NCBI GenBank assembly: GCA_964493665.1
Contig: CAZBOZ010000004.1
Location: 388-64,387, forward strand
Direction: 5' to 3'
Source of the DNA: an uncultured Muribaculaceae bacterium
GTDB lineage: Bacteria > Bacillota_I > Bacilli_A > RF39 > UBA660
DNA length: 64,000 nt
Below, in pieces: positions 2,119-55,892 of the stretch. Both the position numbers and the translations under genes were made by a program. How positions within the stretch are numbered: position 1 is the stretch's first letter; each line of letters opens with the position of its first letter. The notes under the pieces were generated by a model that was not told the origin of the DNA, did not search any database, and saw nothing but the letters and a program-made list of their open reading frames with translations.

Positions 2119-5001
2119 TTAATCTCCAAAATAATATTCTACTTCTTCATCGGTTAAATTAAAGAAAGATTTAGTTTGACTTATCATATATTTCTCTCTT
2201 TTTGAAATATATTCTTTTAGTCTTCCTAATTGGTATTCAAAATCACTTCGCGATAAATTCCATCTCTTAAAGTTTCTTTCTAATTCTGGTTCTAATTCAT
2301 TTAAAATTTCATCCATTTTGGCATTTATTCTTTCTTGATTCCAAACATTTTTCAACTGATAGCTTACTCTTTCCACAAAGCGTTTTTTAAATTTATCATT
2401 TTTCATCAAATTTCTAAGTAGTACTGTTGAATAATTATTAACAGTCATCCCTCCCGGATTAGTAGCAAATTCATAATAATTTTTTTCATAGTTATAAAAA
2501 GCCCAATCCAAGTCATAAAAAACAAATTTCCATTTACCATCATCTAAATTAGGATTACGAAAATAGCGATAATTTACAATATCATTATTGGTTGTATATG
2601 TTTCAGCTACCCAAAAATCAATAAATGAATCTATATCAATTAAAGATGCAACATGATCATAATATTCATCATTACTTAAATTATAACTATTTAAATATTT
2701 TATTAAAGAATTATAAGCAGTTTTAGTTCCACTTTTTAATTCTCCATCTACTCTTAATAAATCAGTGCCTAAAGGAGAAACATTGAAATTATTAGAGACA
2801 TAATTTTCATCAGTTTTTTCTCTTAAATAATAAAGTCCCCAATAATTCCCATTTATATATAAAATAACTGTTTTATAGGCTTGAACATAAGCATTAGTTA
2901 CTCCATCAACTAATGATGTTCCTAATAAATCTCTTATTATAGCCCTATCTTCATCTTGAGAAGCAGTTCTTAAAACTAAATCTTCATATGTAGAATAATC
3001 TCTATTTTCAAAAATTTTATAGTTTAAAGTCCCATCACCAAATTCTTTGCTAAATTTTAAAGCATAACTTTTTTTGGCTGGACCTCTTGTTGTTCCACCA
3101 AATAGTTTTAAAGCCGAACTAATTTTAAAGCCATTATTATCATCAAAGTATTCAGCATAAGCTGGCACTTCAATCCCCACTGTCCAAGCATTATTATTTA
3201 GATAGCTAAAATCACTAGGATTTAGAGAAATACTTATTACTGGGACAGTATGATTTTCATTTATAATATAAGAATTAGTAACCACATTACTAACTCTCTT
3301 ATCTTTATTTATGCTTATCGCCTTTAAAATCGTTGTTTTAGTTAACTTTATAGGGGCATTATATTTATTACTAGAACTAGTTGGCTTAGAACCATCCATA
3401 GTATAAAAAATGTCTCCTTCACCAGTTAATTCTACCATTATATTTTCTACATTATTATAAATACCACCTACTTTATTAAAGATAGGTGGTGTACTAATTG
3501 CTATTATACCATTTTGATTACTTGTCTTAGGTGTTGGACTACTATAATAATATTCACCATAATCAAAAGCTTTTCCATAAGAATAACCTGGGTCCAAATC
3601 AGGAATAAACAATGTATCAACTATTTTGCTATTGTAAAATAAATACAAAGCATCATTATCACCTATTTTAAAATTTAGATGCTTATATGAATCGTTAGAT
3701 AAATTTGAATCTCCAGAAGCCATAAAAATATAGTATTCACCAGATTTTAAAGTTATATTTGGTAACTTATCATTACAACTAGTATCTTCCTTGCCTAAGC
3801 AATAACTGCTCAAATTAATATCTTTACCACTATTATTATAAAGCTCAATCCAATCATAGTATTTACTGCCGTTTTGAGGAAGCAAAGCATAATTAGAAGT
3901 CATTACTTCACTTATTATTAAAGTACTATTAGTATTAAGGTATTTCTTTTGAAAAGAACTAATACCATTTTTAGTATTTTCATAGCCAGGGCTTATATTA
4001 GCACCTTCTACCAAAACATCATTTTCTTTTATTAAAGCTAACCCATTTGCCATATTTTCATAACTGGCTATTTCTATTATTTGGCCTTGATAAGATAATA
4101 TTGCATTACCGGTTTTATTTTTTAATTCAAAGTTGGCACTATACTCATTGTTTTCATGATAACTTTTACCAGAAGTATATATTAAAAACACTTCATCTTT
4201 TTTAAGATTAATATTAGGCAAATTATATTTAAAAGGCTTATCTTTATCATTTGATATTGCATAACTACTTAAATTAATAGTTTTATCACCAGTGTTTTTT
4301 AATTCTATATAACCAGAGTATTCATCATTTAAATTTTGAAATCTTCCTTTATTGTTTGGTAAAACTTCATTTATTACTAATTTATTATCTTCAGTAGAAT
4401 TAAGAGAAGCTATAAAAGCTGTATATCCTTCCAAAGTATTTAAAAATCCAGGAGTAGCTTGATTATAAATATGCCAAAAGCCTTCTAAATCTCTTCCCAT
4501 CACTTCATTACTAGTTAAATTTGTTAATTCAACTGCATCAACAACATCTTTCTGACTATTTCTCAAGATTAAATTCTCACTACCAGAAGATGACAATTTA
4601 AAATTAGCAATTAACCCTTCTGATGCTTTACCACTTAAAAATATTACTAAATATTCTTCACTTTTTATAATGGTATTATCCGGAAATACCCATTTAATTT
4701 TAGAAGTATTATCTGACAAACTATAATTAGTTAAATTAATATCTTTACTTTTGCCATTATATATTTCAATCCAATCATAGATTCCTCCATCAGGAGCCAT
4801 TATTGTACCACTATTGTTAGAGCTTATTTCATTTATAACTAATTTAGTAATATCACTTTTACCATTCGTTGTTAAGTCTTCTGCTTCAATATTATTGTTG
4901 CTTACAAATAAAGATATAACTAAAAAGGTTATTATAACCAAACCGGATATAATCAAAAATAAACGATTTTTTAAAAATATATCTTTATTAAAATGAGGCA
5001 T
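2119..5001 (-). CDS. CotH kinase-family protein with three lamin-tail domains (LTD), N-terminal membrane anchor
   Basis: Three LTD-like segments: DWIEIYNGKSKDINLTNYSLSD, YIELKNTGDKTINLSSYAISND and DWIELYNNSGKDINLSSYCLGKE. C-terminal CotH-like region: FIDFWVAETYTTNNDI, NYRYFRN, GKWKFVFYDLDWAF. The ORF track starts at 5037, but the ATG at 5001 has RBS GGGTGA and yields the signal anchor MPHFNKDIFLKNRLFLIISGLVIITFLV. Confidence 0.6.
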   Translation of the reverse strand: MPHFNKDIFLKNRLFLIISGLVIITFLVISLFVSNNNIEAEDLTTNGKSDITKLVINEISSNNSGTIMAPDGGIYDWIEIYNGKSKDINLTNYSLSDNTSKIKWVFPDNTIIKSEEYLVIFLSGKASEGLIANFKLSSSGSENLILRNSQKDVVDAVELTNLTSNEVMGRDLEGFWHIYNQATPGFLNTLEGYTAFIASLNSTEDNKLVINEVLPNNKGRFQNLNDEYSGYIELKNTGDKTINLSSYAISNDKDKPFKYNLPNINLKKDEVFLIYTSGKSYHENNEYSANFELKNKTGNAILSYQGQIIEIASYENMANGLALIKENDVLVEGANISPGYENTKNGISSFQKKYLNTNSTLIISEVMTSNYALLPQNGSKYYDWIELYNNSGKDINLSSYCLGKEDTSCNDKLPNITLKSGEYYIFMASGDSNLSNDSYKHLNFKIGDNDALYLFYNSKIVDTLFIPDLDPGYSYGKAFDYGEYYYSSPTPKTSNQNGIIAISTPPIFNKVGGIYNNVENIMVELTGEGDIFYTMDGSKPTSSSNKYNAPIKLTKTTILKAISINKDKRVSNVVTNSYIINENHTVPVISISLNPSDFSYLNNNAWTVGIEVPAYAEYFDDNNGFKISSALKLFGGTTRGPAKKSYALKFSKEFGDGTLNYKIFENRDYSTYEDLVLRTASQDEDRAIIRDLLGTSLVDGVTNAYVQAYKTVILYINGNYWGLYYLREKTDENYVSNNFNVSPLGTDLLRVDGELKSGTKTAYNSLIKYLNSYNLSNDEYYDHVASLIDIDSFIDFWVAETYTTNNDIVNYRYFRNPNLDDGKWKFVFYDLDWAFYNYEKNYYEFATNPGGMTVNNYSTVLLRNLMKNDKFKKRFVERVSYQLKNVWNQERINAKMDEILNELEPELERNFKRWNLSRSDFEYQLGRLKEYISKREKYMISQTKSFFNLTDEEVEYYFGD

Positions 5002-5080
5002 TTTATTCACCCTACTTTTACTATTAAATAATACCATAATAACTATTTAGTAACAAGAAAAAAAGCATTAAACAATGCTT

Positions 5081-15791: not shown

Positions 15792-16952
15792 TCAATCAGT
15801 TATAATTACATATGGATCAGTTAAAGTCCCACTCCCAGTAGCTTCTGTTCCTGCCATCAGGTTTATTACCGGTCTTACTCCAAATGCATAATTAACTGGA
15901 TAATTATATAAAAATCCTGTGGAGTCGACATACATAGCATAAGATGTCCCATTTTCATACCACATGCTTGGTGACATTGTCCACCAATAAGTATTAACAA
16001 AGCTATTATTATATAAGAAATAGCTAGTATTAGCAGTATCCCATTTACCACCAGCATAAATTACTTCGTCTGCGGATAAAAGGCCAATAGATTCTGTTAA
16101 TGCATAAAGAACGTTATAATAGTCTTTTATTAAAACTCCTTCTGAAGAACAATTAAGCGAAGCACTACTATTAGATACAATTCTTGAATAAGGAGAATAA
16201 TACCAAGAAGCCCCAGTTTGACCATTCCATTCCTTATCATTACAAAATTTTGCATCAGCAATATAATCACTATAATCTGTCAAATAAGTATCATAAAAAC
16301 TATTTAAACTGGTTTCGATATCACTGCCAATATAATCAACATGGCTTTCAGCAATCGCTTCTAAAGATGAACTAGGAGCCGATGAAGTTGTATAATTGGT
16401 ATTAAATTTGGTGTTAATTCCAGAACAGCCACTACTACAAACTGAATCATTATCCACTTCTCTCGTGCTTGTTAAGCCATCCAAAACAATTCTGATTGAT
16501 TGATCGCCATTCACTCTTACTATACGCCATATAAATCCCGCAAACGAAACATAATTCCTAGTAATATTACCTCTATAATAGAACGATACTCCATCGTTAT
16601 CTAAAGTGGTGTATATACCATTTTCCGCCACCTGTGTGTTTGAGTCAGTAACAGTTTCAACTGCTGCTTTAGATAATGTTGCACTATCACAACTTTTTGT
16701 TATATTAGTGTCTGCCAACACTAAATAGCCTAAATCATTAATACTAGAATATTCGGCAGTAATATCACAAATTTGTAAATAATATTGATTGATTACTTCT
16801 CCCGTCTCTAATTCATTTATTATTTCTTTATTTAACTTTCTAAGTACTATTCTTGAGTGAGCATAATTAACTAATATGGCAATCATAACAGAAACAAATA
16901 AAATAAAAAACGCATATACTAAAGACATTGATATAAATCCATTTTTTCTCAT
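15792..16952 (-). CDS. Secreted/membrane-anchored Cys-rich protein, unknown function, last gene of the bacteriocin operon
   Basis: N-terminal anchor MRKNGFISMSLVYAFFILFVSVMIAILV. About 12 Cys. C-terminal AFGVRPVINL. RBS GGGAG 8 nt upstream of the ATG at 16952. Only 72 nt downstream of the putative immunity ORF, same strand. Confidence 0.5.
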   Translation of the reverse strand: MRKNGFISMSLVYAFFILFVSVMIAILVNYAHSRIVLRKLNKEIINELETGEVINQYYLQICDITAEYSSINDLGYLVLADTNITKSCDSATLSKAAVETVTDSNTQVAENGIYTTLDNDGVSFYYRGNITRNYVSFAGFIWRIVRVNGDQSIRIVLDGLTSTREVDNDSVCSSGCSGINTKFNTNYTTSSAPSSSLEAIAESHVDYIGSDIETSLNSFYDTYLTDYSDYIADAKFCNDKEWNGQTGASWYYSPYSRIVSNSSASLNCSSEGVLIKDYYNVLYALTESIGLLSADEVIYAGGKWDTANTSYFLYNNSFVNTYWWTMSPSMWYENGTSYAMYVDSTGFLYNYPVNYAFGVRPVINLMAGTEATGSGTLTDPYVIITD

Positions 16953-17024
16953 TAAAAATACTCCCTTTATTATTAATTTAATTATATTACATTTTTAATC
17001 AAAATAAAAGAGAATAAATCTCTT

Positions 17025-17192
17025 TTAAATGCATAAAGCCAAACTATATATAGCTCTAATTATTGTCCCAACATATCTTCCTAGATTTAAAACAAATGTA
17101 GTTGATATTCCTATTAAATAAAATATTAATGGTGAACAAATAATTAAAGAAACTATAAGTATTATCTTTTTACTTTTTAATTTAGCTGGCAT
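17025..17192 (-). CDS. 55-aa hydrophobic two-helix peptide, candidate bacteriocin immunity protein
   Basis: MPAKLKSKKIILIVSLIICSPLIFYLIGISTTFVLNLGRYVGTIIRAIYSLALCI. The ATG overlaps the 3' end of precursor 1 in another frame. No strong SD, so translational coupling is possible. Below the 60-aa cut-off of the ORF track. Confidence 0.3.
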   Translation of the reverse strand: MPAKLKSKKIILIVSLIICSPLIFYLIGISTTFVLNLGRYVGTIIRAIYSLALCI

Positions 17193-17341
17193 AAATTTCT
17201 AGAAGCAATTCTTCTAATGGCTGTTCCTAAACTTCTTCCCATATCCAAAAGAGCACTAATAGCTCTAGAAATAGAATTGATTAAAGTCCCAGTTAAAGTT
17301 CCACCTACTATAAATATTAGTTCTTCATTACTTAATTTCAT
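17177..17341 (-). CDS. Class II bacteriocin precursor with double-glycine leader (peptide 1, 54 aa)
   Basis: MKLSNEELIFIVGG|TLTGTLINSISRAISALLDMGRSLGTAIRRIASRNLCQLN. Leader matches the LS-EL-I-GG consensus. The mature part is cationic (5 Arg), has a GxxxG motif (GTLTG) and one Cys near the C-terminus. RBS AGGAGAG. Confidence 0.7.
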   Translation of the reverse strand: MKLSNEELIFIVGGTLTGTLINSISRAISALLDMGRSLGTAIRRIASRNLCQLN

Positions 17342-17350
17342 ATATCTCTC

Positions 17351-17491
17351 CTAGTTGCATTTAAGTGGTCTAACTATACCATCTATTACACCTATAAGAA
17401 AAGTAATGCCAGCTGCAATTGCTGCTAATATAGCCCATTTAATTGCTCCTCCTTCCACTAAGATTAGTTCTTCATTTGTTAATTTTTTCAT
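17351..17491 (-). CDS. Class II bacteriocin precursor with double-glycine leader (peptide 2, 46 aa)
   Basis: MKKLTNEELILVEGG|AIKWAILAAIAAGITFLIGVIDGIVRPLKCN. The mature part is hydrophobic with a GxxxG motif (GVIDG) and one Cys near the C-terminus. Its ATG overlaps the ABC transporter TGA stop (ATGA). RBS GGGGGAGAG. Confidence 0.7.
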   Translation of the reverse strand: MKKLTNEELILVEGGAIKWAILAAIAAGITFLIGVIDGIVRPLKCN

Positions 17492-19560
17492 AAACTCTCC
17501 CCCTCTATTAACATTTTATTACTTTGTTTTATTAAAATAGAACGATCAAACATTTTCTCTTTATCACGATGAGTTACATAAATAATTGTTTTATTTTTAA
17601 ATAAGTTTAAAATATCTTTTATAATTAAATCTTCTTGATAAGATTCTACTTCACTTAAAGCTTCATCTAATATCAAAATATTACCATTTTGTAACAATGT
17701 TCTAGCTAAAACAATTCTTTGAATTTCTCCCCCTGATAAATTGAAGCCATTGTCTTCAATCATTGTATTATCACCAAATGGTTTGCTTTTTAATATTTCG
17801 TTAACTCGACATACTTGCAAGATTTTCTCATACCATTCTTCTTGTACTTTTCTATTAAAAATAATATTATTTTTAATAGTATCATTAAATATTTTCTCCT
17901 TTTGTGATAAGTAACTAATATTATTACGAATGGTATTTATACTATAATTGGCTAAAGATTTGTTGCTGATTTGAATACTCCCTTTATTGGGTTTATAGTA
18001 TCCATAAATTAATTTACATATTGTACTTTTACCAGAACCGCTAGCCCCTTTGAGCATTATCTTTTCTCCTTCTTTTATAATTAAATCGAAATCTTTTAAT
18101 ATATAGTTATAGCAATTATAAGAGTAAGACATGTTTTTGATTCTTATATCACCATTTTTAAATTCCTTAAGACCATCATCTAAATTTTCTTTAGATATAG
18201 TTAAAAATTCATTTATTTTATTAAAAGATGTTTTTAGATAATAAAATTCTGGAACAAGACTTATTATCGATTTTAAAGGTTCTAAAGCATAAGCTAATAA
18301 AGCATTTAAAGTAATTAAATCAAGGGTATTCATTTTACCTAAATATATATAATATAAACTTGATGTTATTATTATAAATACCCCTATTTCAGATAAGATG
18401 TTTTTTAAAAATTCTTGTCTATTTAAAATTTTATTGAATAAATAATTATTATTTAAATATTTTAAAAACTTATCATTTGTCTTCTTCAAACAAGTATTAA
18501 CTTGATTATTATTTTTTATTGTTTCCAACCCATCAATATTTTCAACCAAATAACTGTTAAAATTTGTTTCATCGTCTATTAATGACTCCATGTTTTTTCT
18601 TAACTTAGAACCAAAAACCAGGCTTAATATAAAATAAATTAAAATAATTAAACAAAGTATTAAAAAAACTTTACTATTTATTTTATATATTAAAAACATG
18701 GCCGAAATTGTTAAAAAGAAATCCAAAAAAGAATTTATAAATATTTTAGAAAATAAATTCTTTATATTATTTAATTCTCTTATTCTAGTAATTATTTCAC
18801 CAGTTGTTTTGTTTTTAACATATTCTAAAGGAAGAAAAAAAAGATGATTTAAAAAAGAACTTATTACTTTTTCATCAGTATCTGTATTTAGTTTATTTTG
18901 ATAATTATTTCTAATATATTCAAACCCTGATTTTAAAATAGTTATTAGAAAAAATAGGATTATTATTTTTAAAAAATGGCTATTTAAATTATTTAGCACT
19001 AATTTAATATAAAAACTAGATAATAAGCTTAATATAATAAAGAATATACTAATTAATAATATTACCAATAACAGTTTTTTATTCTCAACAAATAAATTTA
19101 AAAATAAGTTTACTAAAGACTTTGGTTTTTGATATCTGGCTATTTTATGTTTTGGTTTCATTATTATGATTACTTTAGACCATAAATTTAAAAATTCTTT
19201 AATTGATAATGTTTTATACCCTTTTGCTGGATCCATTAACAAAATTGTTTTATGTTTCTTATCAATTTTATATATTACAACAAAATGATGAAAGTTGTTT
19301 GGTAAAATTAAGTGAGCTATAGCTGGAAGCACTATCTTTTCATCTAAAATATTTTCTATTTTATATCCATCTACATCAAAACCATATTTTCTTAAAGCTT
19401 TTACCATATGAAATGCTGTTGTGCCTTCTTTGTTAGTTAAAGTATCTTGCTTTATTATTTCCATAGGTATATAACCATCAAAATATTTAACTATTGATGA
19501 TATACAAGCTCCACCACAATCTTTAACATCTTCTTGCCTAGTAATATATTTTTTATTCAT
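17488..19560 (-). CDS. Bacteriocin-processing ABC transporter, N-terminal C39 peptidase domain (ATP-binding/permease)
   Basis: N-terminal QEDVKDCGGACISSIVKYFDGYIP (C39 catalytic Cys) with a His further on. Six-TM permease. C-terminal NBD with GASGSGKST Walker A and LSGGEIQR signature. RBS GGAAGGAG. Confidence 0.8.
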   Translation of the reverse strand: MNKKYITRQEDVKDCGGACISSIVKYFDGYIPMEIIKQDTLTNKEGTTAFHMVKALRKYGFDVDGYKIENILDEKIVLPAIAHLILPNNFHHFVVIYKIDKKHKTILLMDPAKGYKTLSIKEFLNLWSKVIIIMKPKHKIARYQKPKSLVNLFLNLFVENKKLLLVILLISIFFIILSLLSSFYIKLVLNNLNSHFLKIIILFFLITILKSGFEYIRNNYQNKLNTDTDEKVISSFLNHLFFLPLEYVKNKTTGEIITRIRELNNIKNLFSKIFINSFLDFFLTISAMFLIYKINSKVFLILCLIILIYFILSLVFGSKLRKNMESLIDDETNFNSYLVENIDGLETIKNNNQVNTCLKKTNDKFLKYLNNNYLFNKILNRQEFLKNILSEIGVFIIITSSLYYIYLGKMNTLDLITLNALLAYALEPLKSIISLVPEFYYLKTSFNKINEFLTISKENLDDGLKEFKNGDIRIKNMSYSYNCYNYILKDFDLIIKEGEKIMLKGASGSGKSTICKLIYGYYKPNKGSIQISNKSLANYSINTIRNNISYLSQKEKIFNDTIKNNIIFNRKVQEEWYEKILQVCRVNEILKSKPFGDNTMIEDNGFNLSGGEIQRIVLARTLLQNGNILILDEALSEVESYQEDLIIKDILNLFKNKTIIYVTHRDKEKMFDRSILIKQSNKMLIEGESL

Positions 19561-19684: not shown

Positions 19685-19762
19685 GGGGAATTAGCTCAGT
19701 TGGCTTAGAGCATCTGCCCTGCACGCAGAGGGTCAAGGGTTCGAGTCCCTTATTCTCCACCA
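19685..19762 (+). tRNA. tRNA-Ala (anticodon UGC)
   Basis: GGGGAAT acceptor with G3:U70 pair, encoded CCA, anticodon stem TCTGC/GCAGA and loop CCTGCAC. Positions 32-33 read C-C instead of the usual U33. Confidence 0.8.
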
Positions 19763-19848
19763 AGTTGATAAATTAGTCATTTAATGTTAAGTGACTTTTT
19801 TTTATTTAAAAAAGTATGGTAAAATAAATATTAGTGAGGGAGAGTTTT

Positions 19849-20625
19849 ATGAAAAAGAGATTATTTTTATTTATAATACTTAGTACTTTATTATTTTTAA
19901 GCGGATGTATTAATAATGATGCTACTAAAGTAGAAAACAAAGAAGAAGATGTTGTTGTTAAAGGAGAATTACTAAGTAGTTATCCAGAAGATATATTACC
20001 ACTTTATAAAGCCGTTTCAATAGAAGATGTTAGCTTTACTTATCGTGATGATCCTAATTATGTAATTGGTAAAGATTATAATTATGTATATTATATTTCT
20101 AGCGGTGATATTGATGAAATATCTGATTATTATATATCATTAATGACTTTTATCGAAGGTAAAGATGAATCTTGGTTTGATAAATATTATCCAACTGGTG
20201 AAATAAATGGTCAGCATGTTAATATTGGCATAAATGACTTAGACGATGAAAATGGCTATATAAGCGTTAGTGTATCAATTGGTGTTAAAGAAGAAGATTA
20301 CGTTGATAAAAATCCTTACTTTATAAATTATCCAGATGTTTTGGATGATTTATATCGCAAAACTAAATTACAAGATATAACTTATAAAATAAGTTATATC
20401 TATAGTAAAGAAACTTATTTAGTTATATTCCAAACTGATATGGATGAAAATGAATTTTTAGAATATTATAAAAATAAATATGAAAATAAAACTGGTTTTT
20501 CAATCAAAGATACTGACTTAGGAAAATACTTAATGTGGAATGAAAATAATTTTGATGTAAGTATAAGATACAATGTATCAGCAAATTATAAATTTATTTC
20601 TATTAGTGCTGAAAAAAGCATGTAA
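19849..20625 (+). CDS. Lipoprotein of unknown function
   Basis: MKKRLFLFIILSTLLFLSGC lipobox (LSGC). ATG at 19849 with RBS GAGGGAGAG. The track start at 19834 is a GTG in the RBS. Confidence 0.6.
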   Translation: MKKRLFLFIILSTLLFLSGCINNDATKVENKEEDVVVKGELLSSYPEDILPLYKAVSIEDVSFTYRDDPNYVIGKDYNYVYYISSGDIDEISDYYISLMTFIEGKDESWFDKYYPTGEINGQHVNIGINDLDDENGYISVSVSIGVKEEDYVDKNPYFINYPDVLDDLYRKTKLQDITYKISYIYSKETYLVIFQTDMDENEFLEYYKNKYENKTGFSIKDTDLGKYLMWNENNFDVSIRYNVSANYKFISISAEKSM

Positions 20626-20634
20626 AAAGCAAGA

Positions 20635-21459
20635 TTAGATATCTTGCTTTTTAGTTGTGTTGGGAATTTTTGACAAGGTCCTTGGAACTCTTGAGAAATC
20701 TGCTGAAGAGCTTGGCTTATCTTCATGGCCCCCGTTTTTTTTCAGCATTTCCTCTATAAACATATCAATCTCTTCAGGGCTGGCGTAATAGCCTATTTGT
20801 TGTCTTAGCATTTCAGCAATTTCTACTTGATACTCATCTGTTTGGATTTTATCGCAAATTTCGTCAATAAGAGATTGCAGCAATTCTTTTTGTTGTCTTA
20901 TTTTTGCTTCTTTTTCTTCATCAAAAAGTAATCTTTCAGAAACTTTATTTTGTTTTTTTATTATTCTTTTAACACATGTCAATCGATTTTCTTTATTATT
21001 TTTTAAATTGTTTTCTTTTAAATAATGAGATAGAATTTCTTTTATATCCTTATTTTCCTTATTAATTGTTGCTAAATAATATATACCACCTATTGCCGCT
21101 GGGACCGGAAGTCCTAAAAACATTAAATACCTAGGAATTATTACTTCTATTTGGTTAATCAAAGACCCTATTACAATCCCTTCCGCTATCCCATAAATAA
21201 TACTTGCGACAGCAAACACTGTAATAGCTAAAGCAACATCACGTATCAGCGCTTTATTAAAATGTTCATAATCTTTTACTATATTTTTGTTTCCTTCTAA
21301 GTTTTCTTGAGTTCTAGTTAATTTTGAGATATTTTTAGCAGTAGAACTTTCATATTCACGCAATACCTCCATATCATACAAGCACTTATTTAAAAGTTTT
21401 CTCAATTCTATTAACTTTTGATTATCATTTTCTATTTCTTGACTTTTTTTTAACAACAT
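20635..21459 (-). CDS. Coiled-coil membrane protein, unknown function
   Basis: 274 aa. Coiled-coil N- and C-terminal regions flank two TM helices (VALAITVFAVASIIYG...FLGLPVPAAIGGIYYLA). Confidence 0.4.
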   Translation of the reverse strand: MLLKKSQEIENDNQKLIELRKLLNKCLYDMEVLREYESSTAKNISKLTRTQENLEGNKNIVKDYEHFNKALIRDVALAITVFAVASIIYGIAEGIVIGSLINQIEVIIPRYLMFLGLPVPAAIGGIYYLATINKENKDIKEILSHYLKENNLKNNKENRLTCVKRIIKKQNKVSERLLFDEEKEAKIRQQKELLQSLIDEICDKIQTDEYQVEIAEMLRQQIGYYASPEEIDMFIEEMLKKNGGHEDKPSSSADFSRVPRTLSKIPNTTKKQDI

Positions 21460-21510
21460 AGGTCCACTTCCTTTTTAATGTTTTCTATTATATCAAATGA
21501 TTTTATAATG

Positions 21511-32991: not shown

Positions 32992-33340
32992 AAAAAATAA
33001 TATCTTATAAGCCACGTTCTGTACTTTTTTCAAAGCGGCAAACATTTATCTACTATTTCTAGTTTCCTATATAAGTTTGATTCCCTATATAAAAATTCCC
33101 CTACCAAATTTGGGTTTCTCACTCACGGGGTTTACCACGTTCCACTATTAAAGTTTCCTTTAATACTCGTCTCTTTGGCACTTTTATATCTAATTTAACC
33201 ATTTAAGGTTATTTCGAAGCCGTTAGTTAAACTACCAGTAGTTATCCTACTGCGTGAACATTACAGCCATTACAGGACTGTGTGAGCATGGACTTTCCTC
33301 TACATAAAAAGATATGCAGCGTTTACCCAGATATTATTCC
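32992..33340 (-). ncRNA. rnpB: RNase P RNA, type B (Firmicute type)
   Basis: Minus strand contains GTAGAGGAAAGTCCATGCTCACACAG (P4 5' strand), AGTGGAACGTGGTAAACCCCGTGAGTGAGAAACCCAAATTTGGTAGGGGAA, and ACAGAACGTGGCTTA (P4 3' strand). These are near-identical to B. subtilis rnpB. P1 pairs AATAATATCT with AGATATTATT. About 350 nt. Confidence 0.85.
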
Positions 33341-52340: not shown

Positions 52341-52892
52341 TTATTTTATGCCGTTTGATTCTAACCAAGAAGCAAATGTATCATAATCTGAGTAACCTAC
52401 CCAAATATCAACTATTTTGCCATCTTTAGCAACTAGAATCATTGGAGTATAGCCATATAAATATTCATATGCATTATCACCAGTATAATTATTTTTTGTA
52501 TTGAATGTATCAGTCATATTATTGATCATTGTTGTCATTGCAGTATAGTCATCACTTGATGTATCGACAGCAGTTATATCAACATAATTAGTTGTATAGC
52601 CATATTCTTCTTGAGCAGCCTTAATAGTTGGCAAGAATTGAACACAATAGCCACAGGTTGCTCTTCCTAAATAAATAACTTGTAAATCAGATTCTTTTAC
52701 TGTTTCTAAGAACTCTGTTTCATCAATAGCATTAAATGAACTAACATCATACTCTGATGTGGTCTCCTCTTCTTCATTTGTATTGCTTGATTTACTTGAT
52801 CCATCAAATAATACAAAACAAGTATTAACAACTAATAATGCTAATATTGCATATAATAATATAAATAATCTCTTTTTCTCTTTCTTTTCCAT
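52341..52892 (-). CDS. Membrane-anchored thioredoxin-like protein (CxxC)
   Basis: N-terminal TM, then GRATCGYCVQFLP thioredoxin-fold CxxC motif. 183 aa. Confidence 0.6.
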   Translation of the reverse strand: MEKKEKKRLFILLYAILALLVVNTCFVLFDGSSKSSNTNEEEETTSEYDVSSFNAIDETEFLETVKESDLQVIYLGRATCGYCVQFLPTIKAAQEEYGYTTNYVDITAVDTSSDDYTAMTTMINNMTDTFNTKNNYTGDNAYEYLYGYTPMILVAKDGKIVDIWVGYSDYDTFASWLESNGIK

Positions 52893-55055: not shown

Positions 55056-55892
55056 TTAATCTCTTTTTTTGTTTTCTCCTATTAATTTAATCTGTTCTTT
55101 CTCTATAGCTTTCAATGATTTGTCAGGTGTTGGCAATTTTTCTGGCAATGTGTTGCCAGCATCTTTTATAACTTTTCTAACTGCCCTGCCTATTTTATTA
55201 TGCAATTTATTGGCTTCTTTTGAAGATTTTATTTTTTGTTTTTTCAAAGCGCCATCAGTTTGAGAGATTCTAAACAAATTGGCAATTAATTCTTCACTCC
55301 CCATATTATCTAAAATATCTTCTCTGTATCTTAGCTTTTTTCTTTTAAATATTTGATCCGCAGTTTCTCCATAAAGGCCTTTATATCCAGAATTATGAAA
55401 TTTTGCCAAATCTCCAACTCCAGCTTCTATTGCCGTTTTATTTAAAGTCCAGTTGCCATTTTTTGTTTGATTCCTAATATAAAATCGTTTGTCTGTTTCA
55501 TCTAACAAACTATATTCCTCATTTGATAACTCTTGTTTTCTTGTTTGAATAGCAAAATAAGTCTTACCTAGTGCCACTACCTTTTTTGATGCATCGGCAT
55601 TTAGCATAATCAAATAACATCCATATCTTGACAGTTTATAATCCCTAATCTTTTTTAAAGCACTTTTGGGCATTTTTATCGTTTTGCTGGTATCAGCAAA
55701 ATGATCCAATATATTAATATTGCTATTAATACAATTCTCTTTGGCTTTATCTACAACCTGGTCAAAATTTCTCCATTGAGTATATTGTAAAGCCAACTGT
55801 AACTCTCTAGCCAACCAATATTCATTACCATTTTCATCTAAATGTTTTATTTGTTCAAAAGTGTTGTTTTTAAATTTTTTTATTTTTTCCAT
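55056..55892 (-). CDS. dinD: DNA-damage-inducible protein D (DinD)-like
   Basis: YWLARELQLALQYTQWRNF and KTYFAIQTR resemble E. coli DinD (WSARDL...YRDWRNF...QTYFAIQTR). 278 aa. Confidence 0.55.
   Translation of the reverse strand: MEKIKKFKNNTFEQIKHLDENGNEYWLARELQLALQYTQWRNFDQVVDKAKENCINSNINILDHFADTSKTIKMPKSALKKIRDYKLSRYGCYLIMLNADASKKVVALGKTYFAIQTRKQELSNEEYSLLDETDKRFYIRNQTKNGNWTLNKTAIEAGVGDLAKFHNSGYKGLYGETADQIFKRKKLRYREDILDNMGSEELIANLFRISQTDGALKKQKIKSSKEANKLHNKIGRAVRKVIKDAGNTLPEKLPTPDKSLKAIEKEQIKLIGENKKRD

Follow-up and report, generated by a model that had tools for sequence, protein, structure and literature searches.

A 64,000-nucleotide (nt) stretch of contig CAZBOZ010000004.1, which we refer to as the window, carries four tightly packed genes on its minus strand, spanning positions 19560 to 17025. 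The first of these (17488-19560) encodes a 690-amino-acid (aa) peptidase-containing ATP-binding cassette (ABC) exporter of the PCAT/AMS type and is followed, on the same strand, by pepA (17351-17491), which specifies a 46-aa precursor with a 15-aa double-glycine (GG) leader and a hydrophobic mature peptide of 31 aa, by pepB (17177-17341), which specifies a 54-aa precursor with a 14-aa GG leader and a cationic, amphipathic mature peptide of 40 aa, and by ORF3 (17025-17192), an open reading frame (ORF) for a 55-aa protein that has a single predicted transmembrane (TM) segment, is a diverged pepB paralog without a GG leader, and is a candidate immunity protein. The start codon of pepA (17491-17489) overlaps the TGA of the exporter gene (17490-17488) as ATGA, pepA and pepB are separated by 9 nt, and the start of ORF3 overlaps the end of pepB by 16 nt. 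Both peptide genes are preceded by strong Shine-Dalgarno sites; the Shine-Dalgarno site of the exporter gene is GGAAGGAG. As predicted from these features, the locus is an operon for two small exported peptides and a transporter that would also cleave them.

A first-pass annotation of the window had described a C39-peptidase ABC exporter followed by ORFs of 46 and 54 aa, and had interpreted them as a class IIb (two-peptide) bacteriocin locus that was acquired as an island. All sequence details of that description, including the ATGA overlap, are confirmed, and the earlier interpretation is, overall, partly supported. The range assigned to the locus (15792-19560) does contain the exporter and both peptide genes, but it also covers ORF3, which was missed, and a gene for a DUF6273 protein, which was not described. 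The peptide genes had furthermore been called hidden below an ORF-size cut-off; in fact, both are called in the Logan/NCBI annotation of the same sequence, and some pepA homologs already bear the NCBI or JGI name "class IIb bacteriocin, lactobin A/cerein 7B family". A terminator scan did not find an intrinsic terminator, and an A/U-rich hairpin right after ORF3 was not significant (z = -1.57); we thus make no claim as to where the operon ends.

The exporter matches the Pfam models Peptidase_C39 (1.9e-31), ABC_membrane (1.7e-22), and ABC_tran (3.1e-29). It also matches, over its full length, TIGR01193 (bacteriocin_ABC; peptide cleavage and export) with 376 bits and E 4e-112, which is below the curated cut-off of 523.85 for this model, and it is likewise below the curated cut-off of NF045998. 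The closest relative with a solved structure is PCAT1 of Clostridium (Acetivibrio) thermocellum (4ry2; E 6e-102 over residues 2-668), and similarity to ComA (8hf4) is also full-length, at about 1e-83. The exporter shares with both proteins the order of a C39 peptidase, a six-helix TM domain, and a nucleotide-binding domain, and retains their catalytic Cys, His, and Asp motifs (DCG(G/A)AC, HFVVIY, and DP.KG, which align with PCAT1) as well as intact ATPase motifs (Walker A GASGSGKST and the signature LSGGE); it differs from them in its divergent sequence and in its cargo. By these criteria, it is clearly a divergent TIGR01193-type member that is predicted to work like a PCAT.

Both precursors carry classical GG leaders (MKKLTNEELILVEGG in pepA and MKLSNEELIFIVGG in pepB) that are 15 and 14 residues long, respectively, end in GG, and follow the pattern E-L-x-x-I/V-x-G-G; the combination of GG leaders (15-30 residues) and a dedicated ABC transporter that characterizes class IIb systems is hence found at this locus, with cleavage being predicted. 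A six-frame scan for the leader pattern across the 64 kb of the window identified pepA and pepB as the only GG-leader ORFs, so that their occurrence is not due to chance; both are located directly behind the transporter. The contrast between a hydrophobic and a cationic peptide, as initially proposed, is borne out by a net charge of +2 and a grand average of hydropathy of 1.41 for PepA (AIKWAILAAIAAGITFLIGVIDGIVRPLKCN; calculated average mass of the mature peptide, 3221.9 Da) and a net charge of +4 for PepB (4272.0 Da), the mature part of which carries the motif GRSLGTAIRRI...C. Each mature peptide also contains a GxxxG motif; this motif is GVIDG in pepA, with both G34 and G38 invariant, and GRSLG in pepB, with the second G invariant and the first at least 90% conserved. 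Further invariant residues in pepA are F31, D37, P42, and C45; the invariant residues of pepB are G39, A41-I45, and C51. An AlphaFold model of PepB (mean predicted local distance difference test score, 72.7) shows a leader helix and one long helix of residues 16-46.

The two peptides differ in how they relate to curated families. With 27.1 bits, pepA exceeds the cut-off of 21.5 for TIGR03949 (class IIb, lactobin A/cerein 7B), as part of a match that covers the leader and the Gly/Ala-rich helix (model positions 2-44), and 29 of 31 pepA orthologs match this model at E <= 0.01. The diagnostic tail of pepA, FxxGxxDGxxRPxxC, is particular to this group, and the pepB of the window does not match the model. 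A score of 17.4 bits for pepA against NF038034 (lactococcin G-beta/enterocin 1071B) falls short of the cut-off of 37, and pepB gives no match. A profile search with pepA found 1594 clusters at 90% identity. For pepB, no Pfam or NCBIfam model matched, and a sequence search of the PDB with the pepB profile yielded chance matches only (E >= 0.078); among its 23 close clusters, 11 match TIGR03949, only weakly (best E 4.9e-4). A profile search of 1.84 billion proteins did identify 410 representative pepB clusters (50% identity) at E <= 1e-3; on the strength of these searches, pepB is taken to define an unmodelled family. In the literature library searched, we found no match to motifs such as GRSLGTAIRR and VIDGYVRPL, although a gut-wide atlas of class II bacteriocins (PMC12648112) may include the peptides, and nothing relevant on RFN20 in connection with bacteriocins or on intermolecular disulfides in two-peptide bacteriocins.

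As noted in the first-pass annotation, each mature peptide contains exactly one Cys close to its C-terminus; it lies 1 or 3 residues from the end. This feature is strongly conserved, as the mature part contains exactly one Cys in 116 of 120 pepA homologs and in 105 of 120 pepB homologs (<= 62 aa), which makes an inter-peptide disulfide a fair hypothesis; the C-terminal cysteines of PepA and PepB may form such a bond, and since the operon contains no modification enzymes, a disulfide would be the simplest role for them. The calculated mass of a disulfide-linked PepA-PepB heterodimer is 7491.9 Da. Elsewhere in the window (52341-52892, minus strand), we observed a gene for a thioredoxin-like protein of 183 aa with a membrane anchor (Pfam Thioredoxin, E 5e-6); it may act as an extracytoplasmic thiol-disulfide oxidoreductase and could bear on oxidation of the peptide cysteines.

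ORF3 and its relation to pepB

By BLASTP, the ORF3 product aligns with PepB at E 5e-8 and 37% identity over 51 aa, pairing KLKSKKIILIVSL with KLSNEELIFIVGG and LNLGRYVGTIIRAIYSLALC with LDMGRSLGTAIRRIASRNLC, and a profile-profile comparison gave a probability of 85% (E 6.5e-6 over 54 columns). Judged by these alignments, ORF3 is a diverged paralog of pepB that is homologous to it over its whole length, and in which the acidic leader and GG site are replaced by a basic, hydrophobic anchor. A word-index homolog search with ORF3 found nothing; the family was recovered by reading related loci, and a Pfam search with the orthologs so obtained identified no significant family. The 27 distinct orthologs show an invariant GxxxG, followed in most by (T/S)xxR and preceded by a basic N-terminus and a long hydrophobic segment, and they mostly have a Cys at the position equivalent to the pepB Cys. 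In comparison with L009, a close though diverged relative of the window, the ratio of nonsynonymous to synonymous substitution rates (dN/dS) is 0.24 for ORF3 (dS ~0.8), within the range of 0.18-0.26 (dS about 0.8-1.1) that is spanned by pepA (0.18), pepB (0.26), and the ABC gene (0.26); ORF3 is under purifying selection. The existence of orthologs, the dN/dS ratio, the homology with pepB, and the fact that ORF3 is called as a gene in L009 all support that it is a real gene.

The start codon of ORF3 is placed in an unusual manner; at 27 of 30 loci, its ATG consists of the last base of the preceding codon and the TG of the invariant Cys codon of pepB, giving overlaps of 7, 13, or 16 nt. Strong Shine-Dalgarno sites precede ORF3 at only 5 of 30 loci, as compared to 26 of 40 for pepA and 29 of 42 for pepB. 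Together, the start within the pepB Cys codon and the small number of Shine-Dalgarno sites point to termination-reinitiation coupled to pepB.

ORF3 encodes one predicted TM domain behind a basic N-terminus, with a predicted N-in/C-out orientation. It has the position, size, and predicted topology expected of an immunity gene in the same operon, is present in about 25 of the 38 species loci surveyed below and absent from about a third of them, and is likely, by these sequence features, to encode the immunity protein of the producer; given its absence from about one third of loci, it cannot be a universal immunity factor. We know of no earlier report of an immunity protein with homology to the beta-type peptide of its own system. 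Immunity proteins of similar size (42-55 aa) with a proven function include CbnZ (42 aa), BrcI (53 aa), EnkIaz (52 aa), and AbpIM (55 aa), and CbnZ has been shown to have a single N-in/C-out TM domain (PMC6957408). ORF3 shares with these four proteins its small size, the single predicted TM domain, and, with regard to gene order, a site just downstream of two peptide genes; it is distinguished from them by homology to pepB, its own beta-type peptide, and by a start codon inside the pepB Cys codon. The pepB-like segment that ORF3 would expose suggests protection by mimicry.

Distribution and conservation of the cassette

To survey the distribution of the cassette, one genome per species was scanned for the motif RSLGTAIRRI, which was found in 38 species; the cassette is hence present in at least this number. 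All are represented by uncultured metagenome-assembled genomes (MAGs) labelled Bacilli, Bacillales, Tenericutes, or Firmicutes, with four exceptions (one Candidatus Onthousia, one "uncultured bacterium", and two with records titled Muribaculaceae), and the MAGs originate from human, mouse, rabbit, chicken, goat, and reindeer guts. The cassette has the order ABC gene, a gene for a TM protein of ~140 aa (in ~22 of the 38 species), pepA, pepB, and ORF3. Nearly all loci found from pepB contain the ABC gene, pepA, and pepB together, and the same three-gene module is present in all three loci that were reached from pepA; the presence of two adjacent peptide genes in one operon, another hallmark of class IIb systems, is hence not only seen in the window but near-universal in related loci. 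Two homologs (P0172 and P0228) are in-frame pepA-pepB fusions within a single ORF, in which each precursor is complete with its own GG leader, such that a PCAT would need to make two cuts.

Co-directional rpsU is located within 1.5 kb downstream of the cassette in 26 of the 38 species, with four further contigs ending too early to tell, and RsmD is encoded upstream in 12. The flanks shared between the window and L009 comprise, around the cassette, a 318-aa gene, tRNA-Ala, a 386-aa gene, rpsU, VanZ, YbeY, Era, and RecO. Mean identities between the window and the other species are 36% for the ABC protein, 57% for mature PepA, 53% for mature PepB, 46-47% for the leaders, and 33% for ORF3. We infer from this synteny that the cassette is old and has been inherited vertically in a clade of uncultured gut Bacilli rather than recently acquired.

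The absence of an HlyD-like accessory protein, as reported in the first-pass annotation, held up in the window, where neither hidden Markov model searches nor tblastn found a homolog of the ~140-aa accessory protein of the relatives and where none of the TM-anchored candidates tested matched the HlyD family; the accessory-protein gene that would be expected of a class IIb system is hence not present in the operon. In the relatives, the protein of ~140 aa has one N-terminal TM helix and is encoded between the ABC gene and pepA (e.g., L002:6431-6856, L012:4412-4855, and L045:4406-4840); it has no significant Pfam family and may represent a minimal, possibly HlyD-like accessory protein. HlyD/LcnD-type accessory proteins of characterised systems are much longer than ~140 aa. 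As a review of class IIb bacteriocins calls the role of the accessory protein unclear (PMC2850506), we did not take its presence as a strict requirement.

Proposed function and competing explanations

The proposal that the locus encodes a class IIb bacteriocin is well supported in silico, through its gene anatomy, the match of pepA to TIGR03949, a transporter that is closest to PCAT1, and the GxxxG motifs and single conserved Cys of both peptides. In the published class IIb layout, two peptide genes are followed by a small TM gene, and the peptides pair in membranes through GxxxG-mediated contacts between helices (PMC2850506). As in lactococcin G, plantaricin EF/JK, and carnobacteriocin XY (PMC2850506), the two peptide genes lie side by side in one operon, the peptides have GG leaders and GxxxG motifs and form a pair of one hydrophobic and one cationic amphipathic member, a dedicated C39-ABC transporter is present, and a gene for a small membrane protein, here ORF3, is located directly downstream. 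Unlike in these characterised systems, the mature sequences are unrelated to known pairs and pepB lacks a curated model, one invariant C-terminal Cys per peptide suggests a covalent heterodimer, no accessory protein is encoded (with the ~140-aa protein limited to relatives), no regulatory genes are linked, and the locus is syntenic across a clade rather than variable among strains. It looks like a new family of two-peptide bacteriocins. Noteworthy in it are the unmodelled pepB family, the conservation of one Cys in each peptide, and a candidate immunity protein that is a paralog of the beta-peptide.

With moderate confidence, we propose that the four genes form an operon for a two-peptide (class IIb-type) bacteriocin-like system. 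The GG leaders and the adjacent PCAT with its retained active site imply that both precursors would be cut after GG by the C39 domain and exported by this transporter, in this genome without an accessory protein. The hydrophobic helix of PepA and the cationic amphipathic helix of PepB would then pair through their GxxxG motifs, possibly linked by a disulfide between their C-terminal cysteines, and the pair would insert into and permeabilise the membranes of related bacteria, probably by way of a conserved membrane-protein receptor. ORF3, presumably made by termination-reinitiation from the pepB message, would be anchored in the predicted N-in/C-out orientation, with a GRxxGTxIR...C segment resembling that of PepB exposed outside the membrane. 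It would most likely shield the producing cell, and a plausible way of doing so is competition with PepB, either for PepA or for the receptor. The cassette as a whole would have been kept vertically in a clade of uncultured gut Bacilli. A more elaborate version of this proposal, which we consider tentative and on balance unlikely, holds that PepA and PepB form a membrane-active Cys-Cys heterodimer, that ORF3 arose by duplication of the beta-peptide gene and, tethered to the membrane and without a leader, imitates PepB so as to trap PepA or the receptor in a dead-end complex (immunity by self-mimicry), and that the cassette is a near-core trait; synthesis of ORF3 would, in this version, be hard-wired to that of PepB by the start codon within the PepB Cys codon.

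A number of observations weigh against the proposed two-peptide bacteriocin system. Cleavage, export, antimicrobial activity, and immunity are putative functions; PepB is without a match to any curated bacteriocin model, and the transporter scores under the curated TIGR01193 cut-off. One annotation of the window sequence leaves out ORF3, no Shine-Dalgarno site precedes this gene, and about 12 of the 38 loci lack it; ten of these consist of the ABC gene, pepA, and pepB only and leave no room for a further gene before rpsU. Formation of a disulfide in an anaerobic gut organism is uncertain. Finally, bacteriocins are usually patchy in distribution and fast-evolving, which makes conservation in synteny across a clade atypical, and the mature peptides of this locus, which is found at a fixed chromosomal position, are better conserved across species than the transporter; this strong conservation and fixed position would fit a conserved physiological role equally well.

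Such a non-antagonistic, clade-conserved role, in which PepA and PepB would serve the producer itself, for example as a pheromone or other signal or as a heterodimer at the surface or in the membrane, and in which ORF3 would be a membrane partner or receptor-like protein, is possible, albeit not probable. It would account for long vertical retention next to rpsU despite divergence of the ABC protein to ~30-47% identity, for mature peptides that are better conserved than the leaders as well as the transporter, and for the one third of loci without a candidate immunity gene, and it is in keeping with hosts that are uncultured Bacilli known as MAGs only, some of them labelled "Tenericutes". Neither the window nor the relatives, however, have a gene for a histidine kinase, response regulator, or other receptor linked to the cassette, and a 31-aa peptide that is nearly all TM helix does not resemble known pheromones; both peptides are like pore-forming class IIb peptides in their GxxxG, amphipathic, and cationic features, and pepA passes a curated bacteriocin model.

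It is considerably less probable that the products of pepA and pepB act on their own, as one-peptide (class IId-like) bacteriocins with a common transporter, and not as a synergistic pair. While loci in which several bacteriocins share an exporter are common (e.g., blp and pln) and pepB has no match to the curated two-peptide models, nearly all loci examined have the two genes side by side in a fixed order, in-frame fusions of them occur, and their products have complementary hydrophobic and cationic characters with one invariant Cys each.

If active, the peptides encoded by this operon would represent a widespread, sequence-novel family of two-peptide bacteriocins in gut Bacilli of humans and animals, a group of producers of which, to our knowledge, no member has been cultured and for which no factors of antagonism are known. 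Being short and apparently unmodified, the peptides could be obtained by chemical synthesis, which makes activity, target range, and the role of the cysteines directly testable. With regard to single-TM-domain immunity proteins of two-peptide bacteriocins, the mechanism of which is poorly understood, the homology between ORF3 and pepB provides a concrete hypothesis that can be probed by mutation, and the strict synteny of the cassette prompts one to ask if "bacteriocins" can persist as core-like traits over the long term.

The tRNA-Ala gene and other neighbors

A tRNA-Ala(UGC) gene (19685-19762, plus strand; identified by ARAGORN and Rfam) is a divergent neighbor of the cassette and not a member of the system. 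Its location 125 nt upstream of the ABC start agrees with the adjacency reported in the first-pass annotation, but the acquisition as an island that had been read from this adjacency does not fit a cassette that is syntenic across 38 species. Integration of a horizontally acquired island at tRNA-Ala is very unlikely, and is largely refuted by synteny as far as can be judged from the sequences compared: it would be in line with the nearby tRNA gene, with the ~20-22% G+C of the exporter gene as compared to a mean of 26.8% for the window, and with the observation that the cassette does not adjoin rpsU in L049 and L050 and has therefore moved at least occasionally, but the same flanks, including tRNA-Ala upstream of the ABC gene, are found in the diverged relative L009, the cassette precedes rpsU in most species, no tRNA gene is located nearby in four distant loci checked (L002, L004, L012, and L045), and neither an integrase nor flanking repeats turned up among the ORFs examined. 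The low G+C content is also unremarkable for a membrane-protein gene in a genome of 26.8% G+C, given the abundance of Ile, Leu, Lys, and Phe in the membrane segments. Contrary to what is expected of a tRNA-associated island, which would be variably present between conserved flanks and inserted at the 3' end of the tRNA, the cassette is located on the 5' side of tRNA-Ala, and the only variable DNA is on the 3' side. There, the window contains, in comparison with L009, an extra 1.75 kb (19763-21510) with two genes, encoding a putative lipoprotein of 263 aa (19834-20625, plus strand) and a coiled-coil/TM protein of 274 aa (20635-21459, minus strand); if anything, this segment, and not the bacteriocin cassette, would be the tRNA-associated insertion.

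Downstream of ORF3, the DUF6273 protein (15792-16952, minus strand; 386 aa) matches its Pfam model with 26.1 bits (cut-off 23.5) and has a hydrophobic, prepilin-like N-terminal segment (MRKNGFISMSLVYAFF...). Only the window and L009 have a gene for this protein at that position, ahead of rpsU; in the other species, rpsU mostly follows the cassette directly. The gene is probably outside the cassette. The C-terminal "FGVRPVI" of the protein weakly resembles (E 0.008) a genuine pilin-like protein of L048.

Three further observations were made in the window. A gene for a 278-aa protein (55056-55892, minus strand) adjoins tRNA-Arg(CCU), and the N-terminus of this protein resembles that of a Bro-N-domain gene product which, in one relative (L007:7372-8208), is encoded by a gene inserted between ORF3 and rpsU; this likeness suggests a small mobile gene that may hop between such sites. 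A 972-aa protein (2119-5037, minus strand) contains lamin-tail (LTD), Fn3-associated, CHB_HEX_C, and CotH kinase domains. Finally, an RNase P RNA of class B (33003-33334, minus strand; 251.7 bits) is consistent with a Bacillota/Bacilli host.

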